Assembly (NCBI GenBank): GCA_050084985.1
Contig: JBITNC010000001.1
Span: 98,766,001-98,830,000 of the forward strand
Length of the DNA: 64,000 nt
Source of the DNA: Nageia nagi
Taxonomy: Eukaryota > Plantae > Pinophyta
Direction of reading: 5' to 3'
Under the pieces are notes generated by a model that had not been told where the DNA came from, made no database searches, and saw only the letters and a list, made by a program, of their open reading frames with translations. Shown one piece after another: positions 628 through 50,000 of this stretch. Within the stretch, counting starts at the first letter, position 1. Each line of letters opens with the position of its first letter. A program made the translations under genes and the position numbers.

Positions 628-2708
628 TATGGGTTCATTTGCTTTATGTTATTTTCTTTATGCTTTTTTTAGGATGGGCTTAAGGACCATGATTTTACAT
701 GCTAGTCCCCTTGATTGCTTTTGTCACCTGAGGACATTAATATACTTTTTTTTTTTTAAAAATTTCAAAAGCATTCATTATTTTATCGAAGTATGTAAAT
801 ACTTTTATTCATCAGATGAATACAGTAGAAGAAAGGAGAAGAGAAAATGAGCTTCAAACCAACAACTGATTACACCTCCTGCTCATCATTTGATGATGCA
901 AATTGCGTGTTGGGATGCTTTTCTTTTCCATGTGGACCCTCTAAAAATTGCACGCATGACTTAGGAGATCCCAAGCAACATAGTCGGGAATGCATTACCA
1001 ATTAGCCTGTTTGAAAAGGACTTGTACCTCCAAGGCTCTTGTCGAAACAACTTACTTAACGACCCAACGTTGTGACGTTTAAGTTATGCCCGCTAAGTGT
1101 GTTCCTGGTCTAGGGATAGATAAAGAAAGTGTGGTATCCCTCTTTGAAATCAGCCTCAATAGAATGGAACGAGAGGTAGTAGTATGTTAACCAATGTTGT
1201 TTTATTCTTTGATGTATAGAGTTTATTCAAAACCTATGTATGGACTTAACGATTGTATTTGGATTTGAAAGCATAAATAAAGCATGAAGAAAGCATAAAG
1301 GAAATACAGTAAAAGGTGAAGGATAACACCTTGGAGACAAAATGGATACTTGGTCGGATATGAGTTTAAGGTTCACTGATCGGAAAGTGTCTAAGAGTTG
1401 ATCTCTTTTGAATCGGTTAAGGACTTTTCATCCAATTCATTCAACCTTGCAAGCAAACAACTTAGTGTTCGAATTGCTTGAAAGAGGAGCGGGGACAAAT
1501 GTCAATTGTCTATTCTCTACGAATAGGACCGATGCAATTGAATGGAAATGGAAAGTTTGAAAGTGGGAGGATCATGGTTTTGGATGAAGGACCTAACAAG
1601 ATGTCATGAAAGTAGAAACTGACATAGAATACCCAATCAACTTGTACATTAAGGATCAACCAACAAGCATAGGTAAGCTTCAAGCACTTTTTAAAGTTTT
1701 TTAGAGATAACTTGCATAAAGGTCGAAAGCTTTCAAAGGAATAAAACGAAAGTGCACAAACCAACTATGATTGTCCTCAAAGATTCAATCCATAACACCA
1801 ATATGTAAAATATCAAACTTAAGTCTTCGCATAACCACTTTGTATTATATTTGTAAAAGGAGGTGCCAAGATTTACAATTTGCTTTCAATTCTTAAAAGT
1901 TCTCTCTTCAAGATTGAATTGTTTGCTTCAGAATGAAGTCCCTACAAAAATGAGACCCTTGGCCTCTTATTTATAAAGTTTTGGAAACCAAAGGACTTTG
2001 AAACCTAAAAGTGAGTTTCAAAACCCTAATCCCTAATTGTGAAATTAAAAGCTAACTTAAAATGCTAATTGAAATTACATTGGACTTAGTGGAATCCACT
2101 AAGTTAGGCAATATTTGGCTTACATATCAAAAATTTGCCATAATAGACCCCTTTCTATTCATGCGATTGTGGGAAGATGACTTGTACATTTGTTGCGATT
2201 TTGGCTTCAAAGTCATCTCCTATGAATGCTTCCACGTTCTTGATGGCCCGATGGATTGTTTGGAGGACTCCTTTGTTTGGTAGCAGGTGCTCCAGGATGG
2301 CCTTATTGGTTTTGACTATTTCCTTGCAGCATGCGCAAGTCTAATTCCTCCTTTCATCTGTCTTCCTATCTTTAGGCTATGTGGATCCTCGGGACACAAC
2401 TTTTTTGCAATAGTGGTGTGTACTGTTGTTATCACCGTCATATACTCCTTGATGCTGCCGTTTTCTTCAAACAAAGGGACCTGGAATTCATATTCTCTCG
2501 CTTGCTCACTAATAAGGGTTTTGAGATGAGTCTTGGTGTATATGAAGTTGATAGACTTGATTTTGATGTAGAACAGATAATCATACAGATGGAACCAATC
2601 TATGCAAAAATCTAGTACGAATGGATGATGGGTTGTCCTTCTCCATACGTCAAACATTGCGGGGTATCGTTTCTTCCATTTGATGATCTTGTCTATTTTC
2701 TCTGCCTA

Positions 2709-2885
2709 AGAATGCGACCCCTCCTCTTCAATATAAAAATCTATCATGCTTGAGTGGAGTGCTTTGATAGCCTCAATAAGGTCCTTGGTCCATTCTTGCT
2801 TCAGAGCGGTGATTCCAGTATTTAAGTCAACCTGCTTTTTGATGTCTTCAATTGTCAAATTAGCAACCATGACTTCTTTGTCAAT
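2709..2885. repeat. Direct repeat copy 1 (~180 bp; copy 2 at 4157-4334)
   Basis: GAATGCGACCCCTCCTCTTCAATATAAAAAT...GACTTCTTTGTCAATC occurs twice, roughly 90% identical by eye. Confidence 0.9.
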
Positions 2886-3693
2886 CTCCATGTCCATGTC
2901 TGGGCTCTATCTCCAATCTACTGGGCGTTATTTCTTCAATCTCCCTGGTGTTAACATCAACTCTGTGTATCCGGGATCTGTACTTTGGGCGTTATTTCTT
3001 CCTCCATTCCCGGGTGTTATTTTCTCCATGTGTGGGCTCTATTTCCTTTCTGGCCTCTCCTACATCCCGTGCTTTGGAACTTAGAGACTACGAGGCTTAC
3101 CTCCTAGACTTTGGGCTGTAGTTCATCTCCTTCGGGTTACGCTTTGCCACGGGCGTTATTTAATCTCGGGCTCCCTCTCCATTCTGGTCCTTATCTCCAT
3201 TTCTCTGCTGCGGGTGGTAGGCTCCTTCGGGCACTGTCTCACTATTCCGAGACTTAACATTTTTTCTCCGGGCTGCATTTCCTCTGTGTGATGTTTTATA
3301 CTCCAAGACTTATTGATTTCGGGCTTTATTAACTCCGGGTGCTACCACTCTCCAAGACTTGTTGCACCCGCCGATTTTGGTGAGTGACATCACCATTTTA
3401 GAGGCCGGATCCTGGGACTTATTCCACTATCACATCCCTCTTGCATCAAAATTCGGATTTACACTATGGAAATGTCTATATAAGGGATTTCTACCCCGAA
3501 ATTAAATGCTCAATTGCGACATGAATTCTGAACATCGGCATTAACATTTTTGTACAAAAATGGTTGATCTACCTTCTACAACCATTTAATGTGATTTAGA
3601 TGTCGTGCATGCAAGGGCATGGGCTTCCTCTACTCTCTGTAGAAAGGACGACAAAATGTGTGCATGGAGCCATGCTGCATTTAATTGTATTTT

Positions 3694-3864
3694 TTTTTTT
3701 TTTGGTTGGTTAAAACTCCGGACCGTTGAACAATCCATACCCAGTGTTTGATTAACGTGTACGAAGGGGGGGTGGGTCCCTCGCCACACGATCCTCCCTG
3801 AGGATCGAACCTAGACTCCGCCTGTGCAAGGTGGCGAGTTGCCGCTCGACCCAGGCGGGATTAA
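3694..3864 (-). mobile_element. tRNA-derived SINE, young
   Basis: Minus strand has an A-box-like TGGGTCGAGCGG, B-box GGTTCGATCC and a poly(A) tail. Perfect 16-bp TSD CATTTAATTGTATTTT at 3678-3693 and 3865-3880. CpGs are intact. Confidence 0.9.
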
Positions 3865-6800
3865 CATTTAATTGTATTTTGACCAAGTAACATGTATGTA
3901 ATATTTTATTTTTTAGTATAAGTCTAGATAGCCTATCTGTAAGCAATAGGATGGAGGAGCAGATTAAAAAAAAGAAGTGTGTATGTTTTCCTATTAGCTC
4001 TGTGAGAGCCTTATAATAGTTTTACCTCTCTGCAATACATTTATTTTGGTCTCCAATTTATCTTGCTGTTTATTCTGCCTGTGGTTAGCCTCGCTGTGCT
4101 TTGGCTATACACATTTTTATTTGTTTTCTTTCAAAATCTTCAATTTTCTCCACTTGAGAATGCGACCCCTCCTCTTCAATATAAAAATTGGTCATGCTTG
4201 AGTGGAGTGCTTTGATAGCCTCAATAAGGTCCTTGGTCCATTCTTGCTTCAGAGCAGTGTTTCCATTATTTTAGTCAACCTGCTTTTTGATGTCTTCAAC
4301 TGTCAAATTAGCAGCCTTGACTTCTTTGTCAATCATTTTCTAACTCGCCACTTTCTTCTTTAATTTTTGGATCTCTAGCTTTAATAAGGTATCGGATTCC
4401 CTCAGCGCCCATTGCTTTTGTGATGATGCTGTGCGTCATTCCCAATGGGCCAGCAATCTTTGCAAGGGCCTCTTCTGTTTCAACTATGAGGACAAACTTT
4501 CCGGTACCAGCCTTGTTTTTTTTGGAGTAGAGCTTGTCCTTGTAGGTGACTTTACCTACAGTGGTGGTGAGAGTATCAATCTGTTGAAGTTCCTCATTTT
4601 CATCTTCGAAATCTTCTCCTTCGTAGGGATGATTTGAACTCAAATTAGCCATCACTGCAGCCATGTCGACGTGGGGTTCCATGGGTTGTTTTCCATAAGG
4701 AACCATCTCTTTGTCTTTGATGATTTCAACGTCATGCTCTACTTGTCTTATTTTTCTTCTCTGTTCTTCATTTTTTCCTTCATCCTCCTGATTTGCATCA
4801 TCTCCGCCTGAAGATGATGCCATTGTCCTGGGTCTTGATGTACCCTTCTCTGTTGATGTTGCCACGATCCTTGAGATGGTGGCATTTGTGACGCCTATTT
4901 CTGAGGAGCTGATTTTTGGGTGCCTGCTCCTGTTGCTTGCTATACAATCATATCAATTGCGAGATTTTCTTCATTAAGGATTTCTATTGAGTGGTCAGTG
5001 TCGACCCTATCAAAGGCAATATCTCGGTTCCCTTCCATGTCGATGTCGATGATTACACTAAGATCCATCTCTTCATTAGACTCTGACGATCTACTTGGTC
5101 CATACTAGTCAGAACTGGACGATGATGTGCTGGGGTTTGGATTTAGGCGCGTACCACTTCAATTCAAACCTTGCAGGAGATCTATCTTTTTTTGCAAGTG
5201 TTTGAATGGTTGAGAGATCAAGCTTGCTCTTTTGAGGTCCATGATGCCATTTTTCGTACCCATGACAGTTGTTTCAATGGTTTGTTCGGGGATGCTATTG
5301 GTAGCATACTACTCGTTCTGTCCTTGAGCCAGGGTTACTAAGGGTGATATTATGGGAATAACATACCCATGGCTTGGGGGTATAGTGACTTGTGCATTGG
5401 CTTTTAACCTGTCAGCTTCTTCGACTTCTCTCTATTTTTGTTGTTTCTTCAGCTCCTTGTGAATCCATTGAACCTGCAGGGCATCTGAATGTTCCTATAC
5501 CTCTCTATACTGCCAAGGGACTGGTGTGGATATGATGAGCTCCATGTCTTCTGGAAGAATGCATCAATCACTCCATTAGGATCATAGTGATCTGTAGCTA
5601 CCTCAGTCGGGAATTCATACAACGCCAGCTCTTGTTTGATCATATCAATCTGTTGCTAGGTGTTGCATTCATATTTCCCAATAATGACATGTAATTGGTA
5701 GGTGGTTGTGCCTTCTTTACCCATACCTTGTCATGTATTTATGCAATTGTCTTGAAAATTCCATGAGGATGAAACGATCACTTGCATAACGAGGTAGCTT
5801 GTAGGGGGCTTCTTTGGAACCATAGACTCTGAGGTATGTAGATTCTATGTCTTCCATAAAGAAGTTTACGTGATAGCAGCTTCATTGGATATTCTGCTAC
5901 ATTGGCTCTACCCATGATCTCTTCATAGATTTTGCCTTCAAAATCGATAGTCATCATCTTCAGTTTCCGTCGTTCCGATTTATTGTGAGCATAGAACCGT
6001 GGGTAATTTCCCACACTGGATGTGTGGGGTCATACAAATATTTGGTATTGGCAATTGAGGTTACCCTCTCCCTATCGTGAAGGAGTAGGTAAACAGGTAG
6101 GAGTTCATGTAGAATTCTTGCTTCTCTAAATAATTTTTAGTTGCTGAGCCAAGGAGTCACTAATCACTCTGCTCCACCTTCTGCCTTTACCACCATTGAT
6201 CAGATCTATAAACCCTACGATTTCCATCTAGAATTTGGTGTCATCTTTCTGTCTAGTCACTCTGGAAAGCATTGATATAAGTCTGGAGACTACAAGATAG
6301 AATTCTCCTCTATTAGGCTTTGCTAAGGCTTTCCCTGTGAGATGCTTGCGGTCATCGGACCAACGAATCTTTGATCAAATCAATGGAGGTCTCAGACTTT
6401 TGTAGAACCTCAAGGAGTCTTGCATGCTATATGATACGCCTTTGCTTGTCCAAGCGAATGCCCTTTCTATTCCTTTTTCAGAGAAATCCATGATCACCTT
6501 GTTTTTCATATCGAGGAGTCTTCGCCTTCTAGTGTCGCAATGCTTTCCTAGCTCGTAGCACAACTCAGGGAAGGGGGTGGCAAATGGCACCATAGAGGCT
6601 ATCACTAGTAAGGAGTTTTTCAGTGGGTCCTTTACGAGGGTACTTGGATCCATCAACTGTATTTTCATCAAAGTTTTGATGGGGTCTAAGGAGTTACAGT
6701 CTGTGTACCCAATTTTTCTCAATTGGTCAATGATCCTTGCGACAGGCATCACAGGATCTGTTGTATGTTAGAGTGTGATGGGGTTGTGCATTGTGAGTGT

Positions 6801-7689
6801 TCTTTGCTTCCTATCTTTGATATTCTGAGCGACTAACGCCATCTCGTTCCTGTCTAAGAGAACAACACAAAGTTATAAGAGTCCCAGGAAGCTTGTGGCA
6901 CTTTTTAGGTAGGCAAAGAGAAGTTTTTGAAAAATTTGGATCTTTTTACTCTAAGTGTGCCATCATCAAAAAATGCCAAAATTTACAATGTTAAAGGCCT
7001 TTTGGGTGAGTTTGGGGTAACACAAAGGTAACTGACTTAGGAAAATGCCTTGGTAAAAATTTGGAAATTTTGGAGAATTTTAAAATTTTAGCTCAAAAAG
7101 TTGACCTTTTCAATAGGAAAAAGGGTGAAATTTGGCAAACTGGCCAAATGGTGCCGGAATTGAGTTTTAACACCTTAGATGGATGGGGAATGAGTGGGAA
7201 AGATGTTTTAAACTTCGAAACAGCCAAAATGGACTTGAAAAAGACTTTTTGGAAAATTTTCTGGATTTTTTTTGAATTTTTTTGTGAAGAAATGAGGATT
7301 TTAGGTACTCAGATCTTGGATTGTATGTATTTTTTTTGTTATTTTTTGCTGAAAATAAAAGTTGATCACAAGGATAAAGGGTATCCAAAAAAGTGATCAA
7401 ACTTGAAATCTGAAAAATAAGTTTTTCAAGTGTTTGAGGCTTGGGAAAATGGGGTTTTGGTGTGAAAATCCTCAAAAGCTTGAAAAATGGAGTTCATGTG
7501 GGATGGAGGATGTTTGGATCTTGGAGTATGATGAAGTTTGGATGAATGGCAAAGATGCTAAGTGTTCAAATCATCCTCCAAGGGTGAAAATGGGTTTTGG
7601 TCTTCACTTCAATTCTCTAATTCTCAAAATTTTTGGCAGCATAAGGGTGCAAAATGGTAGTAGTGAGTGAAATGGAGGGAGTAAGGGTG

Positions 7690-7698
7690 TATTTATAG
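7690..7698 (-). promoter_or_regulatory. TATA box upstream of the LTR-encoded ORF
   Basis: CTATAAATA on the minus strand ~850 bp upstream of ATG 6842. An equivalent CTATAAATA lies at 43699-43707, ~750 bp upstream of the homologous ORF. Confidence 0.55.
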
Positions 7699-8119
7699 AC
7701 TTAGGGGGTGAAAAGGTGGCATATGTCAACACCACATCAACCCTAAGTGCAAATTTTGCATTTTGGAGTTTTTCCTCTCATGCCCAACGTTGGGAAAGTG
7801 GAGTAAAATGGGGAAATACGGCTGGATCTGCGCATAACTTTGGATGGAGCATGTTTGAAGCAATGTGGGGGCCCTTGGATGCAAAGATGATGGGTTTTGG
7901 ATGCTCTTCAACCTCCATGCTTCAGATTTGGATTTCAAATTTTGAGATTTTTTAAAAAAATATCCAAATTTCTTGAGTTTTCAGCCCTTCAAAGCAAAAA
8001 GGTGGTTTTTGGGAGTTTCCATGGACCAAATTGCACAAGTGAGAGACCAAAGTGGTGTAGAATCACACCACCTATCACATGGAGGCATTAAATGTCACGT
8101 TTGAGCAATTTGAGGGTCA

Positions 8120-9285
8120 AGGAGGCTAGGCACAGGTTTTGGGCTTGTTTGGAACTTTGGTGAAATGGCCCAAAACTTTCAAAACTCACCCTTAATGTTT
8201 ATGGAAGGCAAATCTTGAGCTTTTTGAAATCTTGCAAGAGTCAAAGGTGCTTAAAATTTGATTTGCTACCCTACCTTTCTCTCCAATTTTGATTTTGACA
8301 ATTTTGGAAAATTTTCAAGTCTCCCATTGGCTGATCCAATTTTTTTGATTTTGAGGGAGTAGATCCACTTTTCCAAAAACTTAAAACGTGAAACTTGTTC
8401 AAAATTGGATTTCCCATGCTCCTAGGATGGAAAAATTCGATTTGAAGCATTTTTGAGCCCTTCCAAGTTTGGCGCAGGTTTTGGGACTTTTGGGCCAACT
8501 TGGAAATTTGGGAAAAGAGGGAAAAACTCCTAAAACTGCCGCCTAGATTTTTGATGGGGAAAAGTTGATTTTTTTGCAAAATTGCAAGAGGAAATGTTAC
8601 TCACAATTTTATTTGCCACCCTACCTCATTCTCCTTTTTTGATTTGGCCAATTATGGAAAATTTAGAAAATTTTGGAGCTCTCTCATTGGCTGATCAAAT
8701 TTTGATGATTTGAGGAAGTAAATCTCATTTTTTGGAAAATTCAAATTGTCAAACTTGTGTGAAATCCCATTTTAGACCCCATGGAGATCAAAACTCTCAA
8801 TTTTTTGCAATTTTAGGGTGCAAGAAGGGTAGGCGCAGGTTTTAGGAGGAATAGGCCATTTTCGAAATTTGGCCATACAAGGGAAAAGAGGCAAAACCAG
8901 TGCCTAACTTTTTGAGGGGTATTTTTTAATTTTTTTCTAAAATTTCAAGAGTAAAGATGCCTAAAATTGGATTTGACACCCTACCTCTTCTTTGGATTTT
9001 CATTTTAACATTTTCCAAATTATGAAAAATTTGGAGCATTCCTGTTGTCTGTCCTTTTACTCTTTTTCCTGTTTTTTCCACTTTTGGTGGAGCAAAACTT
9101 GTCAAAATCGTGAACTTGAAAGACCAATTTGATGTAGAATCGCGATCTCCACGCTCCCAATCTTAAAAATAATAGGCCATTTTCAATCTAGGCCTCCCAA
9201 AAGGTGGGCGCAGGTTTTCAAGATAATAGGCCATTTTCAAGATTTGGTGAAGTGAGGGAAAACTTGCAAAACTCCCCCGTAGATT
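8120..9285. repeat. Degenerate tandem array (~345-375 bp period) in LTR U3
   Basis: GGCGCAGGTTTT-type motifs near 8126, 8471, 8831 and 9206, each followed ~70 bp later by AAAAC..GCCTA-like inverted copies. Confidence 0.75.
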
Positions 9286-10499
9286 TTCACGGTCAAAACT
9301 TGAGTTTTTTCGACAATTTCAAGAGGAAAGGGGCCTTAATTTGTCATTTGTCACCACAGCTCTCTCTCAGATTTTCATTTTGAGCATTTTGAAAAATCTC
9401 ATTTTTCGGGCTCTACTCGAAGCTTCTCGGATGCCAAAATGATTATTTTCTGATTTTACCCCCCAAGGGCACTCAAACTTGCTTTCCTGGTCCATTCCGA
9501 GCTAAACTATTCATTCTCGGCCTTTCCCGTCTTTTACGGGCCCAAACGGTGCATTTCTAGCATTGTCATCCTCTAAGTATACATTTCGACCATTTTCGGA
9601 CTTTTTCGAGCTCAAACAGTGAGAAAATGATCATTTTTGACATTTCCGGCATTTTGAGCTCGAAGTTTACATTTCTGGCCTTTCCAAACTCAAGATGTGG
9701 AAAAACGATCATTTTCGGCATTTCTCTGCATTTTCAAGGACTTTGAGCTCAACTTTGCATTTTCGGTCATTTCTGAGCATTCCGAGCTTAAACTGTCCAA
9801 AAGCACACATTTTTACCATACTGATCACTTTCGAGCTCAAAATTGACCAAAACGTGTTTTTCCGTGCTACTGACCATTTACTGGCTCTCCGGGCTCAAAC
9901 TTGACCAAAAACTCATCTTTTAGCCATAGTTGCCTTTTTTGGGCTCAAATTGTGAAAAAATGCACATTTTCGTAATCTTGACTATATTCACTACTCCTGG
10001 ACTCAAACTTGACAAAAAATGGTCATTTTGTCACCTTTGTTGCTCAAACTTACAAAAACGACGCCTTTTTCGCCTTGATGGCCATTCGTTCAAGCTCCAC
10101 TGTCTGGTTGCTATCATGATCCAAAACTACATATTGTGAGATGTCGCTTGAAATCGGGTCACTGGCTGCGTTGAACTCTTTTCATGATTTGGGGGCATTC
10201 TCATGCATTGTTTGATCATCCGGTCGCTCTAGGTTTGCATACTGACTGTAGGTTGATTATGCCCAGGCAATGTCGCTCATTGCCATTGCAAAAATTGGGT
10301 CCCCAAAATGCTGCATCTTGGGGTGTGTTGTGCGGGCACAACACCACCATATGTACATCTTCTTAGATTGTTTTGAACTTTCCACTGCTTTTGAAATCAT
10401 TTCATTACACATTGTATGTAAAGGACAGGCATTACCTAAGTGTGGCTTGATATCCTCTGCTAAATTCATTAGATAAGTCAATCATTTTCCCATGGCCAT

Positions 10500-15915: not shown

Positions 15916-17478
15916 CATTGTTAGAAAACTTGGACTTGGGAACTACTTCCTAAGGCAAAATTTGGAGGGGACTTGGCACTGAAAATCGACAAAAAAACCT
16001 CGAACAATTCGTGAAAAAAACATACAAAATACGAAATTAGAGAGCACCAAAGTCAATTTAACAATGTTAAAATAAAAATAACTAATTAAAAAGTTAATGA
16101 TGCTTAATGTGCGATTATAAAATTATTTTTAATAATATTGTCCCATAATAATCAAAATAAAAAAATACATCAAGTATACTTTTCAAATATTTTTAATTAA
16201 TTTTTAAATAATAAAATAATTGATTAGTTAAATAATTAATGATTAAATAAATAATTAGTTGAGTGATGAATTAAATAATTTAAAAAATCGATGATTAATT
16301 AAATTAAATCAATAAATTAAATAAGAGTTAATCAAATTTTTAATTTATATAAAACTGGTTCCCAATGTTTGATTGGATAACCAAGTTGCATTTAGGAAGA
16401 ACATCTTCAAACTATGCAAAATAAACAGTGGCAGGATGTTGTTGAAACTGTTTCAAATTTGTAATTAACAGGTTGGGTACCTGTATAAAGAACCCATTTG
16501 ATTGATCCTTACCAAAAAAAAATCAAACTTTGAATTAAAAAATTAAATAATATTTGATGATCAAGTAAAAAAATTAATTAAATGAATAATTAAAAAAAAG
16601 GATAATAAATAGATGGTGATTTTAAGCAAATAATCAAAAGAGATAGTAACACATTGAAGGGGAGTTGGAGAGTATGGGTAAGTTAAAAATCTGATTAGAG
16701 AGGCTCAGGTTCAAATCTCTGCCCCTTAGGTTGGAAACATATAGAATCCACGAAGTTAGTGTGGTATGGTCATGCCAAGTGCAAGTTCTGGATAAATTTT
16801 GACTGAAAATATATCCTTGACCATTGCCCCTCAGGCTAAAGGCTACTGTCCCTGTTTCCTAGAAACAAGATGGTTCCATAAAAAATAATTAGAAGAGAAT
16901 AAATCAAATCAAATACTTAAATGAAATTAAAATGCAAACACTTAAAAGTTTTTTATCACAAAATAAATAGCCTAACTTAAGACAATATTCATAGTCGAAT
17001 TGGCAAAAGAGAAGCATAATAGTAATGCACCTGCAAATACACCTTCTTACAAACCCCACAAGTTATGGCTGCATTCATATTGTTTGTTGGGCGTCTCTCA
17101 CACTTTCTTCCCACAAGAAGAATATCTACCACTTGTACACTGCTCACTCCCACCACCATCGTTGCACTCTATAAACAAGTCCATCTCAACAAGGCTATGC
17201 ATGTGTTGCATCTCATGACATTGTAGACTATGCATGTATCTGTCTGATACAATGCTACATTCAGAAGAAGGCATTACACTAGGGCAAACGTTTCTATGCT
17301 CTCTTATTGTACTTTCTTTCTAGAAATCCAACTCTGTTTTGGAGGTTCCCAAGTGATTGTCGAGTAATTGCGGGTTTTCCTATCAACTACTCTATTGAAA
17401 CCTGCCAATAATTGCCTGTGCCATGTAACACTCATTGTTACTTGGCAACCTCAGTTACTCGCAAATTTTTGAACACTG
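15916..17478. mobile_element. Non-autonomous hAT-type element
   Basis: Imperfect TIRs CATTGTTAGAAAA / TTTTTGAACACTG; 8-bp TSD GTTAGAAG / ATTAGAAG. Confidence 0.7.
16644..16882 (+). mobile_element. Older SINE-like insertion
   Basis: B-box-like GGTTCAAATC and an A-rich tail; flanking direct repeats AAATAATCAAAAGAGA / AAATAATTAGAAGAGA (14/16). Confidence 0.5.
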
Positions 17479-18883
17479 ATTAGAAGTGCTTGAGTTGAAA
17501 TATATTGTCCAAGATTCAATTGACTACAATCATTCCACACATTGAGCTATTGTGCAATGAAAATTGAATAAAAAATAACCATAGTGAACTCCAATTGAGC
17601 ACCCCATTATGCTTGCAAAGAAAGATCAACATAAGAATAGAAATGCCTCGTTAATAGGGTAGGAACACTTTTATAATCAAAGAGATGAAGAATATTACAT
17701 TATGACGGATTGCTAATGAAGTGGGAGTAAGGTGTTAGGGGCTTTTTCTTTCCTACTCTGCTGATAGGCGAATTGACTTGCAAGGCTTATGAAATACACC
17801 AACACCTAGGTGGTAGGGCGTGACCCCTACCTGTTATGAGGAGTGGTTACCTCAAAGGTCTTGTGAATAGGATGTTTGAAGCTGTTTCCAACTCAAATGA
17901 AATTTGTTAATCAAGGTCTCGGAGTATTCCTATCCCTAGAAAATGGTTGTTTCTCAAACAAAAATAAAAATTGTGTTGTGAAAGCTGTGAAAAAAAGTGA
18001 AAAAACAAAGAAAAAGGGTGTAGACTAGACAATGGTATGTGGTTGAGCACAAGTGCATATGGTCTCATCGATAAGTGCAAACAGTGGGATCTACTTCCTT
18101 AGAGCTTGATGCAAGTTCAACGCACTCCGTATTCTTCTCACTAACCTGCAACATGAAGGGACTAGTGCAAGGAGCGTGAAGCAATAGGCAAGGGTGGCTA
18201 TAAGGTAGATCATGGTTAAGTCTTCAGTAATGGAGTGAAGTTCTTGCGCTAAGTGACATAAAAGAAGTCATCCCAAACAACACAAGTCTAGTATGCAAAT
18301 CATGAACTTATTGCACATATCACACTCAATGATTACTTCAATTGGTATTCAACAAATTCTCTCATCCACCTCAACACAAGGTTTATGAAATGCACCAAGT
18401 AAACTTGAGCAAAACAATATAGCAATATTACTCATTCATCCAAGGTATTGGATAAAGCATTCAACACATATTCATAATTCCAACAATGAGAACATTCACC
18501 ATTCATTTACTAGAAATTATACCACATTCACAAATGGAGCCACTTGTTTAGTAGAAAAATAGGAATTAAGTTTCTCATAAGTGCAAAATGTCTAATTCCC
18601 TGCAAATGATCCCAAATGGGCTATAAATAGTTTTTCATGGCAACCCCAAATGTTACCCTAACTCTAATGCAAATTAAAGAGAAAAACATAAGTGGTCCAA
18701 TAATTATGTGCCACATGGCATTACAAGATTCCTTGCAAACTTGTGGGAGCAATTCCTCATCCATCACAAGTTTGGGAATAAAATAATAATATAAAAGTAT
18801 TTTGCAAAACTAATATAATTTGCTTGAAAATAACATAAAAATGAAAATAACAACTATGAAGATGGTGGCCCTAAGGCCACAAC

Positions 18884-20500
18884 TCAATCGTCAAAGTCCT
18901 TATCCAAGAACTTTGCAGTAAGCTCTAATCCATGCAACATCTTGGAAGTCTTGGCTTTGTTCTCAGCTACACAACACTCGACTTCGACAATCAACCTCTG
19001 CATCTTGATCTTCCACTTGTGAGCTCCTAATATGTGCCTGAGGTGGCTTCCGATTTGATATGTGTTGACATCTTCCTTCATGAGCAAGCTTTGGAGAAGA
19101 TGTCTAACTTCTACCACTACCAGGTCCGCCTCCTTGATGGTGGTATCCTCTTCTGAAAACTTGACCTTGAAGTACATTTGTTCAAGGCTTGTATTTGCCT
19201 TGTCATTCATTGTAGAAACCTCTTTTCTCACTTCTTGGAAGCGAGTTGCTATTTGATGTATAACGCCCAAGTAGAACCAATAATTGTCACAAAAGCTAAC
19301 ATCTTCCGGTCTCTGATTTTGGTCATCTGAAATCTTTTTATGATGGGCCTCCGAGACTCCAAAATCTTAAGGAAGTGACTCTATTGTCCACTATATCCTT
19401 CAATTTTTGCTCCTTTGCTAAGACGTTCTGTAAGGCACCTATGAATTGTACCACCACTGCCAAAACATCATCTATCACCTCTTGCTTCACAACAATCATG
19501 CCCTCCTTCAAGGTTTATTCTTTTGAGTTCCTTAGGGGGTACCCTTGTGGACTCAATCTCTCTAGTTAATCTCCTTTGGGCGGCCAACTCCTTGAGGCTC
19601 TTAATCTCCTTTTCTTTTAGCAACCCGTCCTTGGCGATCGCCTTAGTGTTGGATATGATTGCGTGCTTCCTACCAGCCATGCCGATGGAACCTGTGTTGA
19701 TGATTTGATTTATTTGCTTAAGGTCCCTAGGCCGTTGTGGGTTGCCCTTGTCAATAATTATGGTTTTGATGTGAACTGCATTATCAGTCAAATGCACATA
19801 AGTCTGACTCTTACCTGGACGAGTGGGACTCTCCAATTTGGTCATTGACGTCACTAATTCCAAATTCCTCCCGACGTCCATGTTGAAAACATTGAGACAC
19901 TTATCCATATCAACGCCCCACTCATCATTGGGTGATGGCTTGTGGGTCTCAACAACTAGTTCTTGTGATATTCCTCTTGGACCTTTTCAAAGGCTTGGCC
20001 TCTTCTTCCACGTTCTCCTCAGATGCTTTTGATGACCGAGACTGAGATGTCCTCTTCAACTGGGTTCTTCTTGGAATTGATTTGAAGGTGGTGGGTTTCC
20101 CCTTCCTTCCTTCGAGAGGTAGAAGAAGAAACGGGCATTTTGACTACCTTGAAAATTCTCAAGGATTCTTCTTCTTGAGCTTTTGGAATATCATCATGTT
20201 GAGCTGTGCTCACTTCTTGTTCATTCTCTTGTGCACCCTCTTAGCCTTCTCCTTGACTATCATCTGGTTCGTACAAGGGACTAAAGGACGAAGACCCAAA
20301 TGGCGGGACAATTGGAGATGGGCGTGAAGCCAATCCTCTAGGTGGTCTTTGCAGAGGTGATGGGTCTTTCTGTTTATTCCTGACACACCTCACCATCTTG
20401 TCAGTGACCATGTTCTCTACCTCTCTTATGTCATGTTCATCTATGGTGTCTTGACTTGCTGCACTACCTTCTCAATTGGATTCTTGCCATGCATTGAAGC
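18884..20500 (-). pseudogene. C-terminal part of the LTR-encoded accessory ORF
   Basis: Fragments 20019-20213, 19468-19908 and 18884-19270. MYFKVKFSEEDTTIKE...EDVNTYQIG aligns with YEFQVPLFEENGSIKE...EDPHSLKIG (2316-2657). Confidence 0.7.
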
Positions 20501-20902
20501 ATATTGGCCAATAGGTTCTTCAATTGTCAAGGGGAACTGGGTAACACTGGATGTAGATTCTTGTGGTCTGTTCCCTCTCGACTGTGACCTCTTATCAATA
20601 CGGTTTGTTGTTGCTTCTGAGCATCCTCGTGCATCTTGGCGTGGATCTTCCTCATCTCTACCTCACTACTTACGTTTCTAAATGGCTCTTCTCTAAGTTG
20701 CTTATGTTCATAAGCCCTCTTCCTTTCTAGGGCATGCGCTCAACTTGGGGATGCATTTTCTCTCGGATCCTTCTAGCTCACCTACTCGTTCATCTTGACC
20801 TTTATGCTCATGCTGAGACCTGAACTTGTGCAATTTTTCCCTTTCTGGTGTCCAAACTTGTCGAATTTGATCATCATGCTCAACTTGGACACCTGCCAGG
20901 CC

Positions 20903-21652
20903 AGGCACATGCCTCAAAAAGTCAAGATTTTGTCCTTTCGAAACGTGTGCCCATCTTTCCAGCCCTTCTAGTTTGGGCGCATGTCTCGAAAAGACAAGCT
21001 TGTCTTTCTGAGGTATGCGCTCGGTTGCAGCTACCCAACTTGATTGCTTTTCAGCCTTTTGCAATAAGGTTGTAGCCAATTTTTTCCCTTTTTGCCAACC
21101 CGATGTCTCCCTTGGTTAGGCGCATGCCTAAGGAAGTCAAGATTCTGTCTTTTTAAATCATGCACCTATCCCTCCGGTCGTGATTGAGTTGGATACTGTC
21201 TTCGAGGGTCCATGCGTTAGCGAAATTTTTCTGTGTGATCGAACTAGATGCCTCTTTGCTATGAGTGAATGCCCTCAAAATACAAGGTTTTGTCTTTTTA
21301 GGCATATGTTTGCCTTCTGGGTACTTGGACTTCACTTTCTTGACTTCAAACTCGATCTGTGCAGCCTTCTAGCTTGAGCGCATGCTTCCAAAAGACAAGA
21401 CATTGTCTTTTTGAGGCATGCGCCTAACTTGAAATGCCTCTAGCTTGGCTTCTTCATCCTTCTTTCCAATCTAGATTGCCCCCAGACCTGAGCGCAAGCC
21501 CGAGAAAGACAAGATTTTGTCTTTTGGAGGCATGCAATGGGCCTAAGAGTTGCCCAATTTTCCTTTCTCAAACTTGATTTTGGTTTGGACAACACCTAAA
21601 CGCAAGCGCATGTCTTAGAAAGACAAAAACTTGTCTTTTTGAGGTATGTGCT
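20903..21652. repeat. Array of ~50-bp palindromic repeats with dissimilar spacers (3' LTR)
   Basis: Seven units of GCGCATGC.(4).AAAAGACAA.(4).TTGTCTTTT.(4).GCATGCGC type near 20903, 20976, 21118, 21263, 21376, 21490 and 21604; the last four have a 113-114 bp period. Confidence 0.9.
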
Positions 21653-22584
21653 AGGCCTAAGAGTGGCCCAGTTTCACTTGACGTAGCTTCGACTTGGCTA
21701 GGGGTCCCTTGATTTGCCTAAGGTCAACTTTTGATTCTCCAAACTTAGTCATTTTTTGGGATTTCAGATTTTTGCTCAACATGGCTAAGACTAAGTGAAT
21801 GATAATACTTATGCTTGGGATAAAAGGCATGATAACCAACTCGTATGAAGCTTTTCAAGTTGGATGCGACAAAAACATAACACTATGTGGACAAAAGTTA
21901 CTGAGGGTCCCCAAAATTGCACGATTTTGGGGCATGTTCTGCTAGTCTCAACAATAGCTAAAACAAAACAACAACAAAAAATGATGGAGACAAGCCAAAA
22001 CAAAACAACAACAAAAAGGATGGAACGAGCAAACTTGATGATGCATGACAATAGATGTATGACAATAGACGGTGAAATAACTTGACACCCTAGGACAAAA
22101 CCTAAACAGTTGGATACATAAATACTTGCCTCATCCATAGGGAATGAGCCTGTGCCAGCGTTGCCACTCACAGCTGCATCATCGGTTTCATTAAAGTGAG
22201 TGAACTCTCATTGGCATTCGAGTAGCCATCGGGACACCTATATTCAGTCTAGATCCGGGGACATTGTGTGCATCTGGAGTGTCTGTTCCAATTGTAGTCT
22301 CTGGAGAAAAGGGCAACCCGCCCCTGAGCTCTATTACTCGATAGATGTGTTTGTTACGTGTTACATGAAATAATCTTAGTTAGAATCACCTGGAGTGTTT
22401 GTTCCAACTGCAATCTTTGGGTAAAAGGATGATCCGTCCTTGAGCTCGGTTGCTCTTTTGAAGATTCCCGATCATAGATGTTGAAGATCATTTTTTGTTT
22501 TTGTTTTTTCTATATATATATTTTTTATGATTTTTTTGTTTTGAGAAAACTATTTACACTATAATACATAGCTATGGGCAAAGC

Positions 22585-24200
22585 TCATGGTTGAAAGTAG
22601 TGCTTAAGATGCTTGCCCTTGACTGGCAAGGGCAACTCCTCACCTGTGAGGTGTCTCAGCTTGAAAATGGTCAAGCTCACCATTGTAGCTATTTGAAAAG
22701 GGCCCAACCATAATCTATCAAACTTGGCATGCTTCCCCTTGTCTTTGTGGGCATAGTTGTAAAAATTGAATTGGAATTGGATAAAATCGGAATTGGCCAA
22801 GCAAACGATCCGATTCGAAGGATCTGATTTTTTTCAAATAAGTGTTTATCTGATTTTTTCTGATTCCGATTCGGATTTTTTAGACAAAAAAATTGCGATT
22901 TTTTCGAAAAATATCAGCATTGAATCGGCCGACGATTTTTTTGTTGATTTTATTTGGTTTTTTGGCCAATTTTATCCGATTTTTTGAGATTTAGCTAAAA
23001 CCAATCAAATTCCTTCATTTTTTCTCATGTCAATTTTTGGCCGATTTTATCCGATTTTTTTGCCGATTTTGTCCAATTTTTCAAAAAATCAGATTCCTGC
23101 AACCAAACGATTCTGATCCAATTCCGATTTTTCTAACTATGTTCGTGGGCTTTGTCCCATAAGAAAACGAGATCCTTGAATCGAAAACTCTTCGCTTGTG
23201 TGTTCCGATCAAACCATCGCTTTGTTTCCAATTGCTTCTTGGTGAGATTTTGGAACGCTTGATCTCTTCTTTCTTCCAACTGAGCTAGTTGAACCATTCT
23301 TGCTTCTAATGTGTCATCAACCTTTGTAATCCTTCACAAAGTGTAATGTTCCGATTTTGAATTGTGCAAGAAAGACTGCCCCATAAACCAATTGAAAGGG
23401 TCTCATCCCGAGTGTGTTCTTAGTTCTTATGTGATCTGCCCATAAGGCGTATTTCAGTTTACTATGCCAATCTCTAGGGTTCCTATCCAATAGTTTCTTC
23501 AAGACAGTTAGCAGATTGTGGTTTGTAGACTCAGCCAAACCATTTCCTTGAGGGTAATAGTTGGCTGAGAATGTTATGGAAATATTATGAGCTTTGGCCA
23601 CTTTGATAACTTGGCTAAACTGAACTCTCGACCATTGTCACAAATTTTAGAGAATGGGGTGCCAAAATGGGTTAAAATGTATTCATCTAAGAATTTAATG
23701 ACCACTTCAGATGTGGCTTTCTTTGTTGCTATGGCCTTAGTTCATCTTGTTCAATAGTCTGTTGCAGTTAGGATGAACTGATGCCTTATCTAGGAAGAGG
23801 GATTGATTACCCCCACAAAATCTAGTCCCCACTTAGCAAACGTCTTCGACTCTAGGACTGGTGGGAGGGGCATACTCAAGAACTTCTCTCACCCTGCTGC
23901 AGTCTAACAGTCGTGACAAGTCTTGGCATAATGTGAGCATCTCGGAATAGATAAGGCCAATAATAACTAGCACAAAGTATCTGATGTGCTAAGGTGTTGC
24001 CTGGTGCATGGTTGGTTCCACCTTCCTTGTTGTGGAACTCTTCAAGGATCTTTTGGGTTTCCTCCTTCTTTGAACATTGCAAGTATATACCATGGAAATT
24101 TCTTTTATAGAGGACCTCATCCTTTATCATAAATTTGACTGCTTTATATCTTAAAGCTCTCTTCTGAGCTAAGACAAAATTCAGGGTATATACCCTGAAG
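22585..24200 (-). pseudogene. Integrase of the Tat element (interrupted by a MITE)
   Basis: YYWPYLFRDAH, YYPQGNGLAESTN, PFQLVYG and KFDRLWLGPF motifs. Confidence 0.9.
22752..23141. mobile_element. hAT-type MITE (390 bp) inserted in the integrase
   Basis: TIRs CATAGTTGTAAAAAT / ATTTTTCTAACTATG; 8-bp TSD TTTGTGGG / TTCGTGGG; many internal CCGATT repeats. Confidence 0.9.
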
Positions 24201-24299
24201 TGATATAATGTTCAACCTGCGGTATAGCATGATTGTGAAGGAGTAGCAATCTAACAAATTCGCAAAGACGAGTTAGTCTTGCCATTCAAAGATCCTGAT

Positions 24300-25620
24300 G
24301 TTCTTTCATCTTGGAAGGATGCCAAAGTTGGATGGTGAGGTCCAACTCCTGTAGTGTAGAAACTCAATTGGCTCTTTGGACCCTCGACTCTTGCTAGGAT
24401 AATAGGTTCTTAATGGCAGGATCGGTTACTATAGCAATTATTGGACTGCGCAAGATATAATGACGAAACTTCTTCACTGCTCTGACCAAGACATAGGCTT
24501 GTTTGTCAAGCATAGGATAGTTAAGAGCAACATCTTTCAATGGAGCACCCATGAAGGTGATGGCCTTCTCTTTCTCATCTTCATCCTTTTAAGTCAAGAC
24601 CCTTGCTATTGAATGTTCTGAGGCAAAAAAATATAAATATTAAGCTTTTTTGTAATCCAGGCTCGTGACAACTGGTGCCTTGGTTATTGCTTCCTTAATA
24701 TCATGAAAGGCTTTTTTCGTCTCATTTGTCCATTTAATCTTTGCATCTTTCTTCATCATTGTTGTTAATAGCTTTGCAATTTCTACGTACCCTGAAATGA
24801 ATTTCTGGAAAAAATTAATTTTGCCCATAAAGGATTTGAGCTCCTTCAAGGTCGATGGATATGAGATTTTCTCCATGGCAACTACCCTCTCAGGATCTAT
24901 GGATATACCCTTCTCCGAAATGATGTGACCAATCAATCTCCCTTTTGTGGACCCAAAGATGCATTTCTTGGGGTTTAAAGATATTCCAAATTCTCGGCAC
25001 CTTTAGAAAATTTTCCTCAAATGCTGAGCATGGTCATTCATATCTTTGGAATATATTGTCGGATCATCCATTTAGATGACAATATTCTTTCCCACAAGAC
25101 CTTTGAATGCAAAATCCATGTCTCTTTGGAATGTGGCATCGACATGGATGAGTTCGAAAGGCATATGGCTGTATGTGAAAGTTCCCCACTTGGTGGTGAA
25201 GGCAGTTTTCAATCGATCCTTCTCATCCACCAGGACTTGATTGTAGCCGGAGAACCCATCTGAAAATGACATCATTTGGGCACCGTATACCATCTAAAGG
25301 ACTTCGTCAAGTGATGGAAGTGGATAATTGTCTTTCTCTGAGGCACAATTGAGATGCCTAAAATCTATGCATACCCCTTCCGGAAAGGAACTATGTTGGC
25401 AACCCATGTAGAATGTCTCATAGGGAAAAAACTCCCCAATTCGACCAACTTTTGAACTTCTTGGAACACCATGGGTTCTAACAAAGGATTCAAAACCCTT
25501 TGTTTTTGCTTGAAGGGTTTGGCATCTAGCTTCAAAGGTATGATGTGAATGATTATGCCTGGAATGTAAGTTTTCAATTGCTCATACGTCCAGGCTATCA
25601 CATCAATATATTCTTGGAAA
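24300..25620 (-). pseudogene. Reverse transcriptase and RNase H of the Tat element
   Basis: DGFSGYNQV, KTAFTTKWGTF..MPF, *MDD catalytic motif (Y mutated to a stop), GHIISEKGISIDPERV; multiple stops. Confidence 0.92.
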
Positions 25621-26049
25621 GCTTTTATGATTTACTCTTCGAGCTTGCTTCGACAAGATTTCCGAATGAGTATGTACTTAGGATCCTAATATGTTCCCAA
25701 GTTTATCTTTTTTGTTTCTTCGACATCGATGTGTTCTTTTGGGCTATTCTCATGTATGACATCTTGATCAAACAGTCTTTCGAAATCAATGATATCTTGG
25801 GGAGTTTGTTGGTCTTCAACTGGAGGATACCGTCTATATACTCATCATGGTCAGCTGCTTGGTGACCCTCATTCAGCTTGATTTGTTCCTCTCCTATGTG
25901 TTGAGAGGTAAAGACTCTCTTGCTTGCCATGAAATTTTCAATATGTTGGTCAAATGGTGTGTACAACATCTGGATGGTGAACCTTTTCAGTTTGCTATTC
26001 TCATCAAGTTGAAAAGTACTTGTTTCCATTGCCAATGAATTTTCCACAA

Positions 26050-26350
26050 TGTTCTACTTCCTGGAGATTGTCTTGATGTTAAAGGCTTTGAAGTCTTCTA
26101 TGAGACTCCACACCTTCGATCTGTATTGGGCTAGGTGGTCGTCTCTACATTCATAATGGCCTTTGATTTGTTTGACCAGCAATTACGAGTCTCCCATTAC
26201 CGAGAGATTCCCAACACCTTTTACCAGCGTAAGGGAATTCCAATCTGAAAGAAGCTTGATATCTTTTACCCTTTAGATTCTGGAGTTCGATCCTAGCTCC
26301 TCCTTCCATTTTAAACTTAGATCCGTCAAACCTAAGAATCCAACATTCTA
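26050..26350 (-). pseudogene. Additional (archaeal-type) RNase H between protease and RT
   Basis: WILRFDGSKFKMEGGARIELQNLKGKRYQASFRLEFP, then LLVKQIKGHYEC...YRSKVWSLIEDFKAF, typical of the Tat aRH domain. Confidence 0.85.
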
Positions 26351-26480
26351 TCTCTAATTTCTTGGGCTTAGGAGGGATGGAAGATTGACATGAGGTTTGA
26401 GCAAAATTAGTTGAAGCAAGAGGACTTTTGACTTTGAGACAATAAACACCGAGGTCTTGCTCCACTAATGCTATTTGATT

Positions 26481-29400
26481 CAGTGTTTGAAAAAACGACG
26501 AATATACGCGAAATTCGCATTTTTCTAAATCTGACATATTCACCTTAAAAAAATGTGTTTTTCTACACTTTTTTCACATGATATTTTCGCATTTAAATGT
26601 GCATATAATGGGGAGGAAATCTCGAACAGGAGTTGGAAAACGCAAATTCGCAAGTGAAAACGTGAATAATCGCGCGATTATTCCTAGCTAGGCCCATGAG
26701 TTCGTAGGTGCCAGATAGGGGAAAAAACCCTCATCTTTTAAAAATTTATTTGGCCTGCGAATATACCCCAAAAAACCTCAATATGGTGGAGGAAAAACAC
26801 GAATATATGCGCATTTATTCATCAGTAAACCCACGAAATCACAATTATAGACAAAGGGGGGAAAACCCACGTTTATATTAGGAGTTAACAGGAATTTTTG
26901 AAATCTGTTCTTAATCCATGTTTATCCTTGCAAAAACACGCGATTTTCACCTTTAATCCGCTGCTGGATAGGGACAGAACTCTAGTTTTGGGTTAAATAC
27001 AAAAAGTTTCCCCTCATTTGATCATTTCACTTTGTAGGTTTGAGGGGAGCAAGATTGGAGCTGAAGGGAGCAAAATAGGAGCTGAAGGGAGCAAGATAAA
27101 GCTTGAGGGGTGCATTGTGTTGTGGTTTGAAGCTAAAGGTAGCTTTATTTTGGTGATTTGGAGTTGGAAGGAGAATTTTGGGGCTGCATTTCAAAAATAT
27201 CTTCAGTTCTCTTGCATTTTGATCAAAATGCCTAAGGAGCTGGATCGTTTTTGGCAGTATGTAACACATTTAAAGGGACCTGAAAAACAAGGTACTCCAG
27301 GTCCTCTAAGATGTAACTTGTGCCAAAAGAAATTTGTTGGAGGGATTAATAGGTTCAAAGTTCATATTTCACAACAAATAGGGAGAGGTGTGGAAATTTG
27401 TCCAACTGCAAGTGCAGACCTTATTCTTGAGGCAAACAAAGACTTAAACTCTATAGTAGAGAAAAAGGTTAGGAAGTCTGCAATTCAAATGGAGCTAGGA
27501 GTAGGATTCCTTCCAGTGCTAGAAGTATAAATGCTAGTCAATCTCCAGCTTCTAGTACTGGTGCTACTAGCAGTAGAGTTGTTGAAATCTCTCCCTACTT
27601 TGGGGCACGAACAACACCTGAAGCCCAACTGTCTATCACAAGTTTACTAAACAAGAATGAGAAGAAAAAAGCAGATTTGATGGTGGCCAAGCTGATATAT
27701 TATGAAGGGTTTCCAATTAGTATTACAAGGAGCATCTATTGGCAATGAATGTTTGATGCAGTTTGTGCAATCGGGGCTCTCTTGTGCAGGATTGAAGCAG
27801 GAGTGCATAGATAGGTACATTAAATTTTAATTATTATATTTTTTTAAACGCTCTTTTATTGGCCATTTTTATTATTTTAATTTTTTAGTTTTACTTTTTA
27901 GTCACATTTAAATTTTTAATAGAGTTGTATTTTAAATTTTAAACTTTTAGTTGTTTCACTTTACTTTTATTTTTGTTTTTCCAGATTGTCTTCAATTAGA
28001 GAGTCTTGGAAGTTAATAGGTTGCACTATAATGTCTGATGGATGGAGAGACATGAAGGGTAGAACCCTTATTATTTTTTTTGTGTATTGCCCACGTGGAA
28101 CAACATTTATTAGATCCGTCGATGCATCCTCACAAATAAAGGATTCTAGAATGTTATTCCATTTATTAGACTAGTTTGTGCAGGAGGTGGGAGTGGAGCA
28201 TGTTGTCTAGGTGATCATGGACAATGTTGCAAACTATGTTCAAGCTGGGAAATTTCTTATGGAAAAATATCCCACCATTTTCTGGACTCCAGGTGCTGCC
28301 GATTGCATTGATCTCATTTTGGAAGACATAGGGAAATTGGATTCAGTTAAAGAGGTGGTTAACCAAGCAAGGTCAACCACTAAGTATATTTATAACAAAT
28401 CCACGGTTCTTAGCATGATGAGGCGATACACCTACAACAAGGAGTTGTTGTGCCCAACAGCCACACAGTTTGCTTCTAATTTCATATTCCTTCAATTATT
28501 GCTTAGAAGCATGTCTGAGCTTCGAGCAATGTTTGTTTCCAGAGAGTGGCTTTCTACCGCTTTGAGCAAGAGGCCAGAGGGCCAAGAGGTGATTGCATTG
28601 ATAGGTAGGTAGGAATTTTGGGATGGGATCATAGAGATTTGTTCAGTGATTGGGCCACTTGTTGTCGTCCTCCACTTAGTTGATGGGGATAGGTCTGCTA
28701 TGGGGTACTTGTATGAGGCCATGGATAAGGTCAAGGAGTGCATCAAGAAATATTATGAGGACCATCTAGATGATGATAATGAGTTTGGCGACAAGTTCAA
28801 CATCTTTTGGAATATCATTGATGAGCAATGGAACAACATGCTACATCATCCTATTCATGCAGCGGGGCCCATGTTGAACCCTAGCTTATTATTTTCACCA
28901 AACTCCAAAATGCTTAGAGACCAGGAGGTTACGAGAGGGGTAAGTTTAAATTTAGAATTAAATTATTGCAATGAACTTTATGAAGGTTTTGATTAATAAT
29001 ATAATATTTTTGAATCTTTGATTATATATTATTAATGGCATTCAAAATTTCAAATTTTAACTTAGGTAACAAAATGCATATGCACTATGGTGAGAGATCC
29101 TGCCAAGCGTGCCAGAATCTTGAAGGACATGGAGATGTACAAGATGTCACTTGGCTTCTTTGGTTTTGGTGGAGCTATAGAGACACAGCATGACCTCTCT
29201 CCAAGTGAGAGGAAATTTCAAGTTCAAAGTTTCAATTTCAATTTTCAAATGCTATAAATAAATATTTCAAACTTCAAGTTAAAGTTACATTTAGTGTTTT
29301 ACAAATTTTAATTTTTTCTAATTTGTTTTGTATATTAGATGTATGGTGGACAAATTTTTGAGCTGATACACCTGAATTGCAAAACATAGCTATTCGCATC

Positions 29401-30482: not shown

Positions 30483-30820
30483 ATTTGATTAGTGTTGTTG
30501 TATTTGGTAATGCGGTCACTCAGGTATGGCTCACCTTGGACGTTGATCTGACTAGGTAGGCCTCTCCATGGAAGCCACAAGTACTTGAAGCATGTAGACG
30601 AAAATCCGTTCAAAGTTTCAGACCAGTCCTTGTTGAGCAACATCCCATATTTTGGTGGTATTTGAACCACTTGAACATCTATGTCCCTTTCTATTAGGGG
30701 CTTTGATGCAATTTGGATGTGTAGATTGTGGATCATTCTGACCACTCTAACGAGTGTATCATCTAGTTGGGTTATGCCTTTGGGACTCTCAACAATGGGT
30801 AGATTCAACATCTCTTTACC
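30483..30820 (-). pseudogene. Protease C-terminal region of the Tat element
   Basis: ITQLD...IQIASKP..DIDVQVVQIPPKYGMLLNKDW...LWLPWRG; homologous to 51019-51420. Confidence 0.85.
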
Positions 30821-30822
30821 AC

Positions 30823-31212
30823 GAGCGCATGCCCTCAAAAGACAAGGTTTTGTCTTTTTGATGAATGTGCTTGACTTTTGGGTACTTGAACTTCACTTTC
30901 TGGACTTTGAACTCGAACTGTGCGGCCTTCCAGCTTGAGTGCATGCTCCCAAAAGACAAGATTTTGTCTTTTTGAGGCATGCGCCTAACTTGAAATGCCT
31001 CCAGCTTGCCTTCTTCATCCTTTGTTCTGATCCAAATTGCCCCAACCCTGAGCGCATGCTCCAGAAAGACAAGATTTTGTCTTTTGGAGGCTTGTGTTGG
31101 GCCTAAGAGTGGCCCAATTTACCTTTCTCGAACTTGATTCTGGTTTGGACGACCCCTAGACCCAAGCGCACGTCCTAGAAAGACAAAAACTAGTCTTTTT
31201 GAGGCATGCGCT
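30823..31212. repeat. Second copy of the palindromic repeat-spacer array (5' LTR remnant)
   Basis: Four units near 30823, 30937, 31050 and 31164, with the same spacers in the same order as 21263-21652. Confidence 0.9.
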
Positions 31213-31387
31213 GGGCCTAAGAGTAGCCCAGTTTCACCTAACTTAGCTTCAACTTGGTTAGGTTTCCCTAATTTGCACCCTTGGTTCAACTTTTGGTTCT
31301 CCAGACTCAGTCATTTTTTGGGATTTCAGATTTTTTCTTAACATGGCTAAGACTAAGTGAATGATAATACCTAGGCTTGGGACAAAA

Positions 31388-49811: not shown

Positions 49812-50000
49812 GACTTGTGGACTCGTGTCCCAGGGTTATATAGAAGTAGATGTAGCAACATTTGCACTACTCACAACAAATGAGAAAAAGGAGCTTTTGG
49901 ACACCCGAAAGAAGGATGCCAAAGCTTTGTTTGCACTACAAAGTCGAATAGATGTTTCAATCTTCCCCAAGATAGCTGAGTGCATAGTTTCAAAGGATGT
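49806..50000 (+). mobile_element. Ty1/copia gag fragment
   Basis: SQDLWTRVSQGY...RKKDAKALFALQSRIDVSIFPKIAECIVSKD fits the copia gag N-terminal (UBN2-type) pattern. Confidence 0.8.

Follow-up and report, generated by a model that had tools for sequence, protein, structure and literature searches.

Accessory genes of some animal retroviruses lie in or overlap the U3 region of the long terminal repeat (LTR), as is the case for MMTV sag, HIV nef and the foamy virus bel genes. Here we describe an accessory gene that would likewise be copied with the LTR, whereas those retroviral genes are much shorter and encode unrelated proteins; its decayed copies lie in LTRs of related retrotransposons in the gymnosperm Nageia nagi, in a window (the whole stretch analysed) of 64,000 nt of contig JBITNC010000001.1. 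In plant retrotransposons, extra open reading frames (ORFs) are placed in the internal region by the consulted portions of the reviews (PMC7264820, PMC11963269, PMC11728184, PMC3485330, PMC12844716). Those of OTA-clade gypsy elements, namely the PMD-coiled-coil ORFs of Ogre and TatIII, Transposase_28 of Retand and ATHILA ORF1/Transposase_32 (PMC4408406, PMC6317226, PMC11963269, PMC11728184, each in the portions consulted), combine a globular domain, a linker and a helical tail, as the window gene does, and PMD is structurally tied to VANC; they are described as internal, while the window gene lies within the LTR and has no Pfam match to these families. VANC (DUF1985) is encoded by VANDAL Mutator-like transposons of Arabidopsis and, in the consulted part of its description, recognises short words that have built up within tandem repeats (PMC5735166). 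TatII elements, recognised by an aRH domain ahead of the reverse transcriptase (RT) (PMC6317226), are reported only from gymnosperms in the parts of the sources consulted (PMC6317226, PMC13477047). One study gives no extra ORF (eORF) for lineage II (PMC4408406), and another counted eORF-5'F in 23% and eORF-3'F in 26% of 27 TatII elements, found no CDD domain in them and did not place them in LTRs (PMC6317226).

We propose, with a probability of about 0.5, that the window gene is an LTR-borne, once-selected accessory gene whose product had a VANC-like fold and bound short repeated words of its own LTR, by which the family stayed open to transcription. What appears to be new is the place: an extra ORF of a kind known from Tat elements sits inside the LTR and has a predicted, testable VANC-like function. 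Across papers readable without subscription, and apart from the per-element eORF positions of PMC6317226, our literature search turned up no account of a gene carried within an LTR of a plant retrotransposon and none of VANC-like proteins encoded by retrotransposons of gymnosperms.

When the window was compared with itself and read through, five related LTR-type units emerged, A to E (Table 1). Because GTTTG stands on both flanks of copy B and terminal direct repeats are missing from it, B is a solo LTR, and since this TG...CA unit holds gene remnants, the gene lies inside an LTR. Copy A is colinear with B and with two homologous loci from metagenome contigs, L002 and L003. A, B, both LTRs of D (the 5' one from 32309), the 3' LTR of E and an insert in L002 all open with TGTT, followed by a shared sequence that folds into one or two hairpins, and CCCAACA closes A, B, C, D, E and L002. 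In element D, pol stands between direct repeats, and with these the TG...CA termini of all six align; one and the same start opens the 5' LTR of D, beside an unrelated flank, and its 3' LTR, after the integrase. Read cover stops sharply at 10343, with mixed flanks (agreement 0.39-0.69), in all four public sequencing runs. The perfect duplication around B, the start common to both LTRs of D and the sharp terminus argue against an ordinary 3' internal extra ORF in giant LTRs that are in truth rearranged or nested pieces with misplaced boundaries, a reading that we consider improbable. We are confident that the gene is LTR-borne, as the first-pass annotation had claimed; its claim that the gene is retained in solo LTRs is borne out, for a gene remnant, by B.

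The same annotation had named a Tat element, which can now be specified as TatII. In element D, aRH lies between the protease and RT, and this order assigns the LTR and pol, on sequence grounds, to a TatII-like Ty3/gypsy class. The gene remnants of D are located downstream of the start of its 3' LTR and therefore tie the gene to a pol-bearing TatII-like element; A, B and C may be served by a TatII pol, to judge by the LTR termini and gene homology that they have in common with D and E. Between the protease and aRH of D (~26600-30470) there is a DNA transposon with visible ORFs, which we take to be hAT-like from its motifs.

The gene in A consists of a globular N-terminal domain (N-domain), a low-complexity linker, a middle block and a helical C-terminal block (C-block). 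It is broken by stops and frameshifts, and its gaps relative to L002 are not multiples of three in 14 of 14 cases in the 5' part and in 2 of 3 in the 3' part. The decayed ORF of about 1000 codons annotated earlier thus stands in refined form (6842→2155, ~1,078 codons), and its insert, given as 2886-4156, is real with corrected limits and an added 195-bp duplication (Table 1). Inside this insert, a short interspersed element (SINE)-like sequence at 3677-3885 has poly(T) and a ~16-bp target duplication.

Homology was assessed by local alignments against shuffled partners. The N-block of A aligned with B in three pieces (scores 141, 113 and 121, each reached in 0/2000 shuffles) and the C-block of A aligned with C (scores 139, 0/2000, and 90, 0/500), which confirmed the homologues claimed there. 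The claim for D held in part. In direct tests against A, the C-block of D was weak (1/2000) and its 'middle block' was not significant (292/2000). The middle block matched L002 and a third locus, L001 (0/1000 each), the C-block matched L001 (0/1000; 12/1000 for L002) and the profile (independent E-value, iE, 1.4e-5), and the profile also matched the N-domain tail of D (20727-20620, iE 1.9e-4). In total, a scan of metagenome contigs (590 candidate stretches) gave at least three homologous loci: L002, which is 80-83% identical to A, lacks the insert and finishes at the same LTR end; L003, 86% identical to A, covering A 8525-4356; and L001, from a distant family in which all four blocks recur. 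Block order and position are conserved across families whose DNA is only ~60% alike. Longer homologues sought with the broken query were found in 0 of 970 candidates, viral contigs (protein scans and a DNA pattern) and genome contigs gave no matches, and the C-terminal half of P0083 had no significant similarity to the window family. A scan of 800-10500 against Rfam yielded 0 matches.

Is the protein sequence the trait that was conserved? With codons near gaps and stop codons removed before counting, the ratio of nonsynonymous to synonymous substitution rates (dN/dS) between L002 and A was 0.25 (0.17-0.35, 359 codons) in the N-domain, 0.23 (0.14-0.38, 170 codons) in the C-block, 0.44 in the linker and 0.36 in the middle block. 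Control values were 0.95 and 1.24 for shifted frames and 0.67 (0.26-2.37, 58 codons) for the post-insertion duplication. The closer pair, A and L003, gave 0.41 in the N-domain, 0.71 in the linker and 1.60 in the middle block, the pattern expected where decay dominates, and in distant pairs the third codon positions differ most. These comparisons indicate that the gene was protein-constrained while the families were active and decayed after insertion; the past purifying selection suggested earlier agrees with ratios of 0.23-0.25, which are not near 1. They also bear on whether a host or Mutator-derived PMD/VANC-like sequence was captured and carried in the LTR as a neutral passenger. Gene capture by transposable elements is very common in gymnosperms (PMC13477047, in the part consulted), every copy in the window is broken and E has lost the gene; however, such ratios between copies 82% identical already largely refute this reading, the position and domain order are constant in families with DNA as divergent as noted above, and no transposase adjoins the gene. 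We regard it as quite unlikely, marginally more so than misplaced boundaries.

The N-domain matched a folded homologue (HHalign 99.8%, E 4e-28), and its best structural match was VANC (PDB 9lnk), with the fold of the VANC21 core in the predicted structure. The first-pass annotation had suggested a structure check of the N-block; this check predicted a VANC-like fold and added a possible function that the annotation lacked. The N-domain thus probably has a VANC/PMD-type fold. By sequence, there was no PDB match below E 0.4 and no match to the VANC/DUF1985 family profile; Foldseek searches of PDB and of viral models returned nothing at E<=0.001, and 0/25 and 0/22 members matched Pfam PF10536 (PMD), PF20167 (Transposase_32) or PF03078 (ATHILA ORF1). 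Language-model look-alikes from the PMD/Transposase_32/ATHILA group, at 0.81 and 0.79, are leads only.

Like VANC in the consulted part of its description (PMC5735166), the window protein is transposon-encoded, and short candidate target words occur in repeat arrays within non-coding stretches of its element. In contrast to VANC, which is described as dicot-specific and belongs to VANDAL/Mutator DNA transposons, it is found in a gymnosperm, inside the LTR of a retrotransposon with TG...CA ends and a 5-bp duplication; sequence similarity is undetectable, an extra region of ~120 residues (model 304-440) falls outside the structural match, and binding is predicted. The host PMD proteins MAIN, MAIL1 and MAIL2 (bioRxiv 10.1101/2024.09.27.615353) have a related fold in two published comparisons and act at DNA motifs against silencing, but they are host genes that oppose Polycomb and are linked to the LTR-gene protein only indirectly, via VANC. 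For DNA transposons, it has been proposed in the literature that PMD proteins encoded by transposable elements act as anti-silencers.

A degenerate array lies upstream of the gene in every gene-bearing LTR family, four in all. A 12-bp word, picked after inspection, recurs at a spacing of ~350 bp in A, B and L003 and of ~184 bp in E; all these occurrences precede the gene position, and 36.9 kb of background contained 4 one-mismatch matches. The array words are a lead as candidate binding sites.

A and B contain exactly two TATA-type words each (43699 and 45380 in B), one 760-850 bp before the ATG and one just past the stop codon. TATA box 1 is deleted in L003 and absent in gene-less E; TATA box 2 is aligned in 5/5 copies (A, B, C, E and L002), with ~0.9-1.1 kb of LTR still to follow, and is likely the start of the genomic RNA. 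As TATA box 2 is downstream of the stop codon, the gene is likely located in U3, which would span ~6.9 kb in A. The mode of LTR copying and the solo LTR suggest that the gene was present twice per element. Because E keeps the array, part of the gene leader and TATA box 2 while TATA box 1 and the gene are gone, we read it as a probable deletion derivative.

A splice-acceptor-like tract ends 11 nt short of the ATG in A and L003 and 9 nt short of it in L001, being one of 5 (A), 3 (L003) and 4 (L001) such sites; no acceptor-like site before the ATG passed in B. A perfect splice-donor word precedes the end of the LTR by ~100 bp in B (46250-46261) and C (46809-46820) and is degenerate in E, A and L002; it could serve an intron in the 5' untranslated region or a spliced gene message. 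An env-like membrane protein, spliced from the 5' LTR, would fit the sense orientation, the 3' position in the genomic RNA, the acceptor-like site and the strong donor word, but the seven proteins contain no hydrophobic stretch of transmembrane length (maximal 19-residue mean hydropathy 1.48) and the globular fold matches a DNA-binding protein, which makes this the least probable of the alternatives. The gene pieces have no Pfam match and no gag, pol or env motif, in line with the earlier statement that gag, protease, RT, RNase H (RH), integrase (INT) and env motifs are missing.

Table 1. Coordinates of the LTR units, gene parts and associated features in the window.
Feature	Position	Strand	Remarks
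Copy A, LTR-type unit TGTTG...CCCAACA	908..10343	-	9,436 bp; 7,988 bp minus insert and duplication
Decayed accessory gene in A	2155..6842	-	~1,078 codons without insert and 195-bp duplication; sense to LTR
N-terminal domain, ~420 residues	5440..6842	-	profile matches 6653-5485
C-terminal block	2155..2885	-	dN/dS 0.23 versus L002
Later insertion in A	2887..4139		flanked by 195-bp duplication (2692-2886 / 4140-4334, 92%); absent from L002
TATA box 1 (CTATAAATA)	7690..7698	-	~850 bp upstream of ATG; candidate gene promoter; aligns with B 43699
TATA box 2	1967..1975	-	~1.07 kb before LTR end in A
Splice-acceptor-like tract	6854..6884	-	ends 11 nt upstream of ATG in A; putative 5' intron
Degenerate ~350-bp repeat array in A	8130..9400	-	upstream of gene; one AGGYRCARRTTT-like word per unit
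Copy B, solo LTR, TG...CA	41352..46350	+	4,999 bp; perfect 5-bp target duplication GTTTG
Gene remnant in B	44455..45170	+	N-domain start fused by deletion to extreme C-terminal tail
Copy C, 3' part of LTR with C-block	46721..49820	-	TATA box 2 at 49082
Gene remnant in C, C-block	49814-49302	-	shuffle-tested alignment
Copy D, 3' LTR of TatII-like element	17085..21953	-	start 21953, end 17085
Gene remnants in D	20727-20620, 19983-19471, 19300-18881	-	N-domain tail, middle, C-block
D's own array, ~114-bp repeats	20830-21800	-	self-comparison
pol of element D	22585..26570	-	order aRH-RT-RH-INT; Pfam RVT_3, RVT_1, RT_RNaseH; integrase pieces weak
Copy D, 5' LTR, truncated	30812..32309	-	86-90% to D 3' LTR; deleted before gene
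Copy E, 3' LTR of related element, gene-less	52396..55625	+	array, part of leader, TATA box 2 kept

Several observations weigh against the proposed reading. A target duplication (4-6 bp) was present in one of three testable units: B has it, while the flanks of A and D have none, so that the earlier LTR limits of A (908-10343) hold for the termini and not for a matching duplication. We saw no element whose two LTRs both carry the gene, and the truncated 5' LTR of D stops short of it. A purine-rich polypurine tract is absent before the 3' LTRs of D (21954-21990) and E (52360-52395); directly before TG, both have a T-rich tract ending in GCTAT, and run X6 has the same type of flank. In L001 (1-820, 4216-4592) the gene homologue runs antisense and adjoins the downstream half of an LTR from a chromovirus-like family, which fits a nested insertion with deletion as well as a different native position. 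The 12-bp word is on opposite strands in A versus B and E, D lacks it but possesses another word, and unbiased k-mer counts exceed shuffles in 3/7 regions, a weak signal.

The missing duplications and polypurine tracts and the L001 context would suit misplaced boundaries, as would eORF-3'F in 26% of the TatII elements; against this, 23% have eORF-5'F, and because so near-equal a split is the outcome expected of a gene present in both LTRs, this ORF may have been counted before without placement (PMC6317226). These elements may have an unusual mode of plus-strand priming; our literature search found no report on missing polypurine tracts. We also weighed whether the sequence following the LTR end at 137 is a primer-binding site, but dismissed this because that sequence resembles the end region of another LTR.

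The weak motif evidence bears rather on function. An LTR-borne protein with a VANC/PMD fold could be a plain activator, a factor for integration targeting or nuclear import, or a particle-associated protein: the fold alone does not fix function, and the extra-ORF proteins of Grande and Retand have been proposed as retrovirus-like regulators in the consulted parts of the sources (PMC7264820, PMC11963269). Yet the sole solved relative is a sequence-specific anti-silencer, host PMD proteins counter Polycomb silencing at DNA motifs, and arrays adjoin the gene in all four families. Such a role seems unlikely, though it is the most serious of the alternatives; that the protein acted on its own LTR against silencing we put at even odds.

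Other features were observed around these units. A second LTR family occurs at 47196-48616 (a solo LTR in C), 31388-32176 (in the 5' LTR of D), ~12450-13990 and L003 5317-6563; its copies inside C and inside D's 5' LTR are nested insertions with near-perfect 5-bp duplications, and in L003 it adjoins a pol with a chromodomain-like tail. An RNase H-like fragment (RVT_3) at 10344-11000, probably derived from a long interspersed element, abuts the start of A. At 40210-40521 and in its vicinity there is a host gene exon matching AMPK1_CBM, in whose long introns the elements appear to sit.

Under the anti-silencing reading, TATA box 1 would drive a short, probably spliced accessory mRNA inside each LTR and TATA box 2 the genomic RNA. 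Reverse transcription would copy U3 into both LTRs, and the gene, thus doubled, would survive recombination to a solo LTR. The N-domain would bind the spaced words that precede the gene, oligomerisation would be the task of the helical C-block, and silencing marks would be opposed both in cis and in trans, in the manner of VANC or MAIN/MAIL; LTRs that have lost the gene but keep the array, such as E, would be served in trans. More tentatively, TatII may have moved a VANC-type, sequence-specific anti-silencing gene with its own promoter and target array into U3. Each 5-8 kb LTR would then be an autonomous cassette, duplicated per transposition, surviving in solo LTRs and helping, in trans, those LTRs that lack the gene. 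Such an arrangement would be a VANC-like system of a retrotransposon and lie outside flowering plants.

The role of the extra ORFs of plant retrotransposons is a long-standing question, and the tie to VANC offers a direct test with the protein and its cognate LTR words. A gene of ~1,080 codons within an LTR contradicts the usual view of LTRs as non-coding, and solo LTRs, normally deemed dead ends, become potential gene-bearing units. As an LTR of ~8 kb exceeds the 'up to about 5 kb' of the main plant survey (PMC6317226), such elements may escape routine LTR finders. If the protein resists silencing, this would bear on how elements persist in heavily methylated giant genomes.

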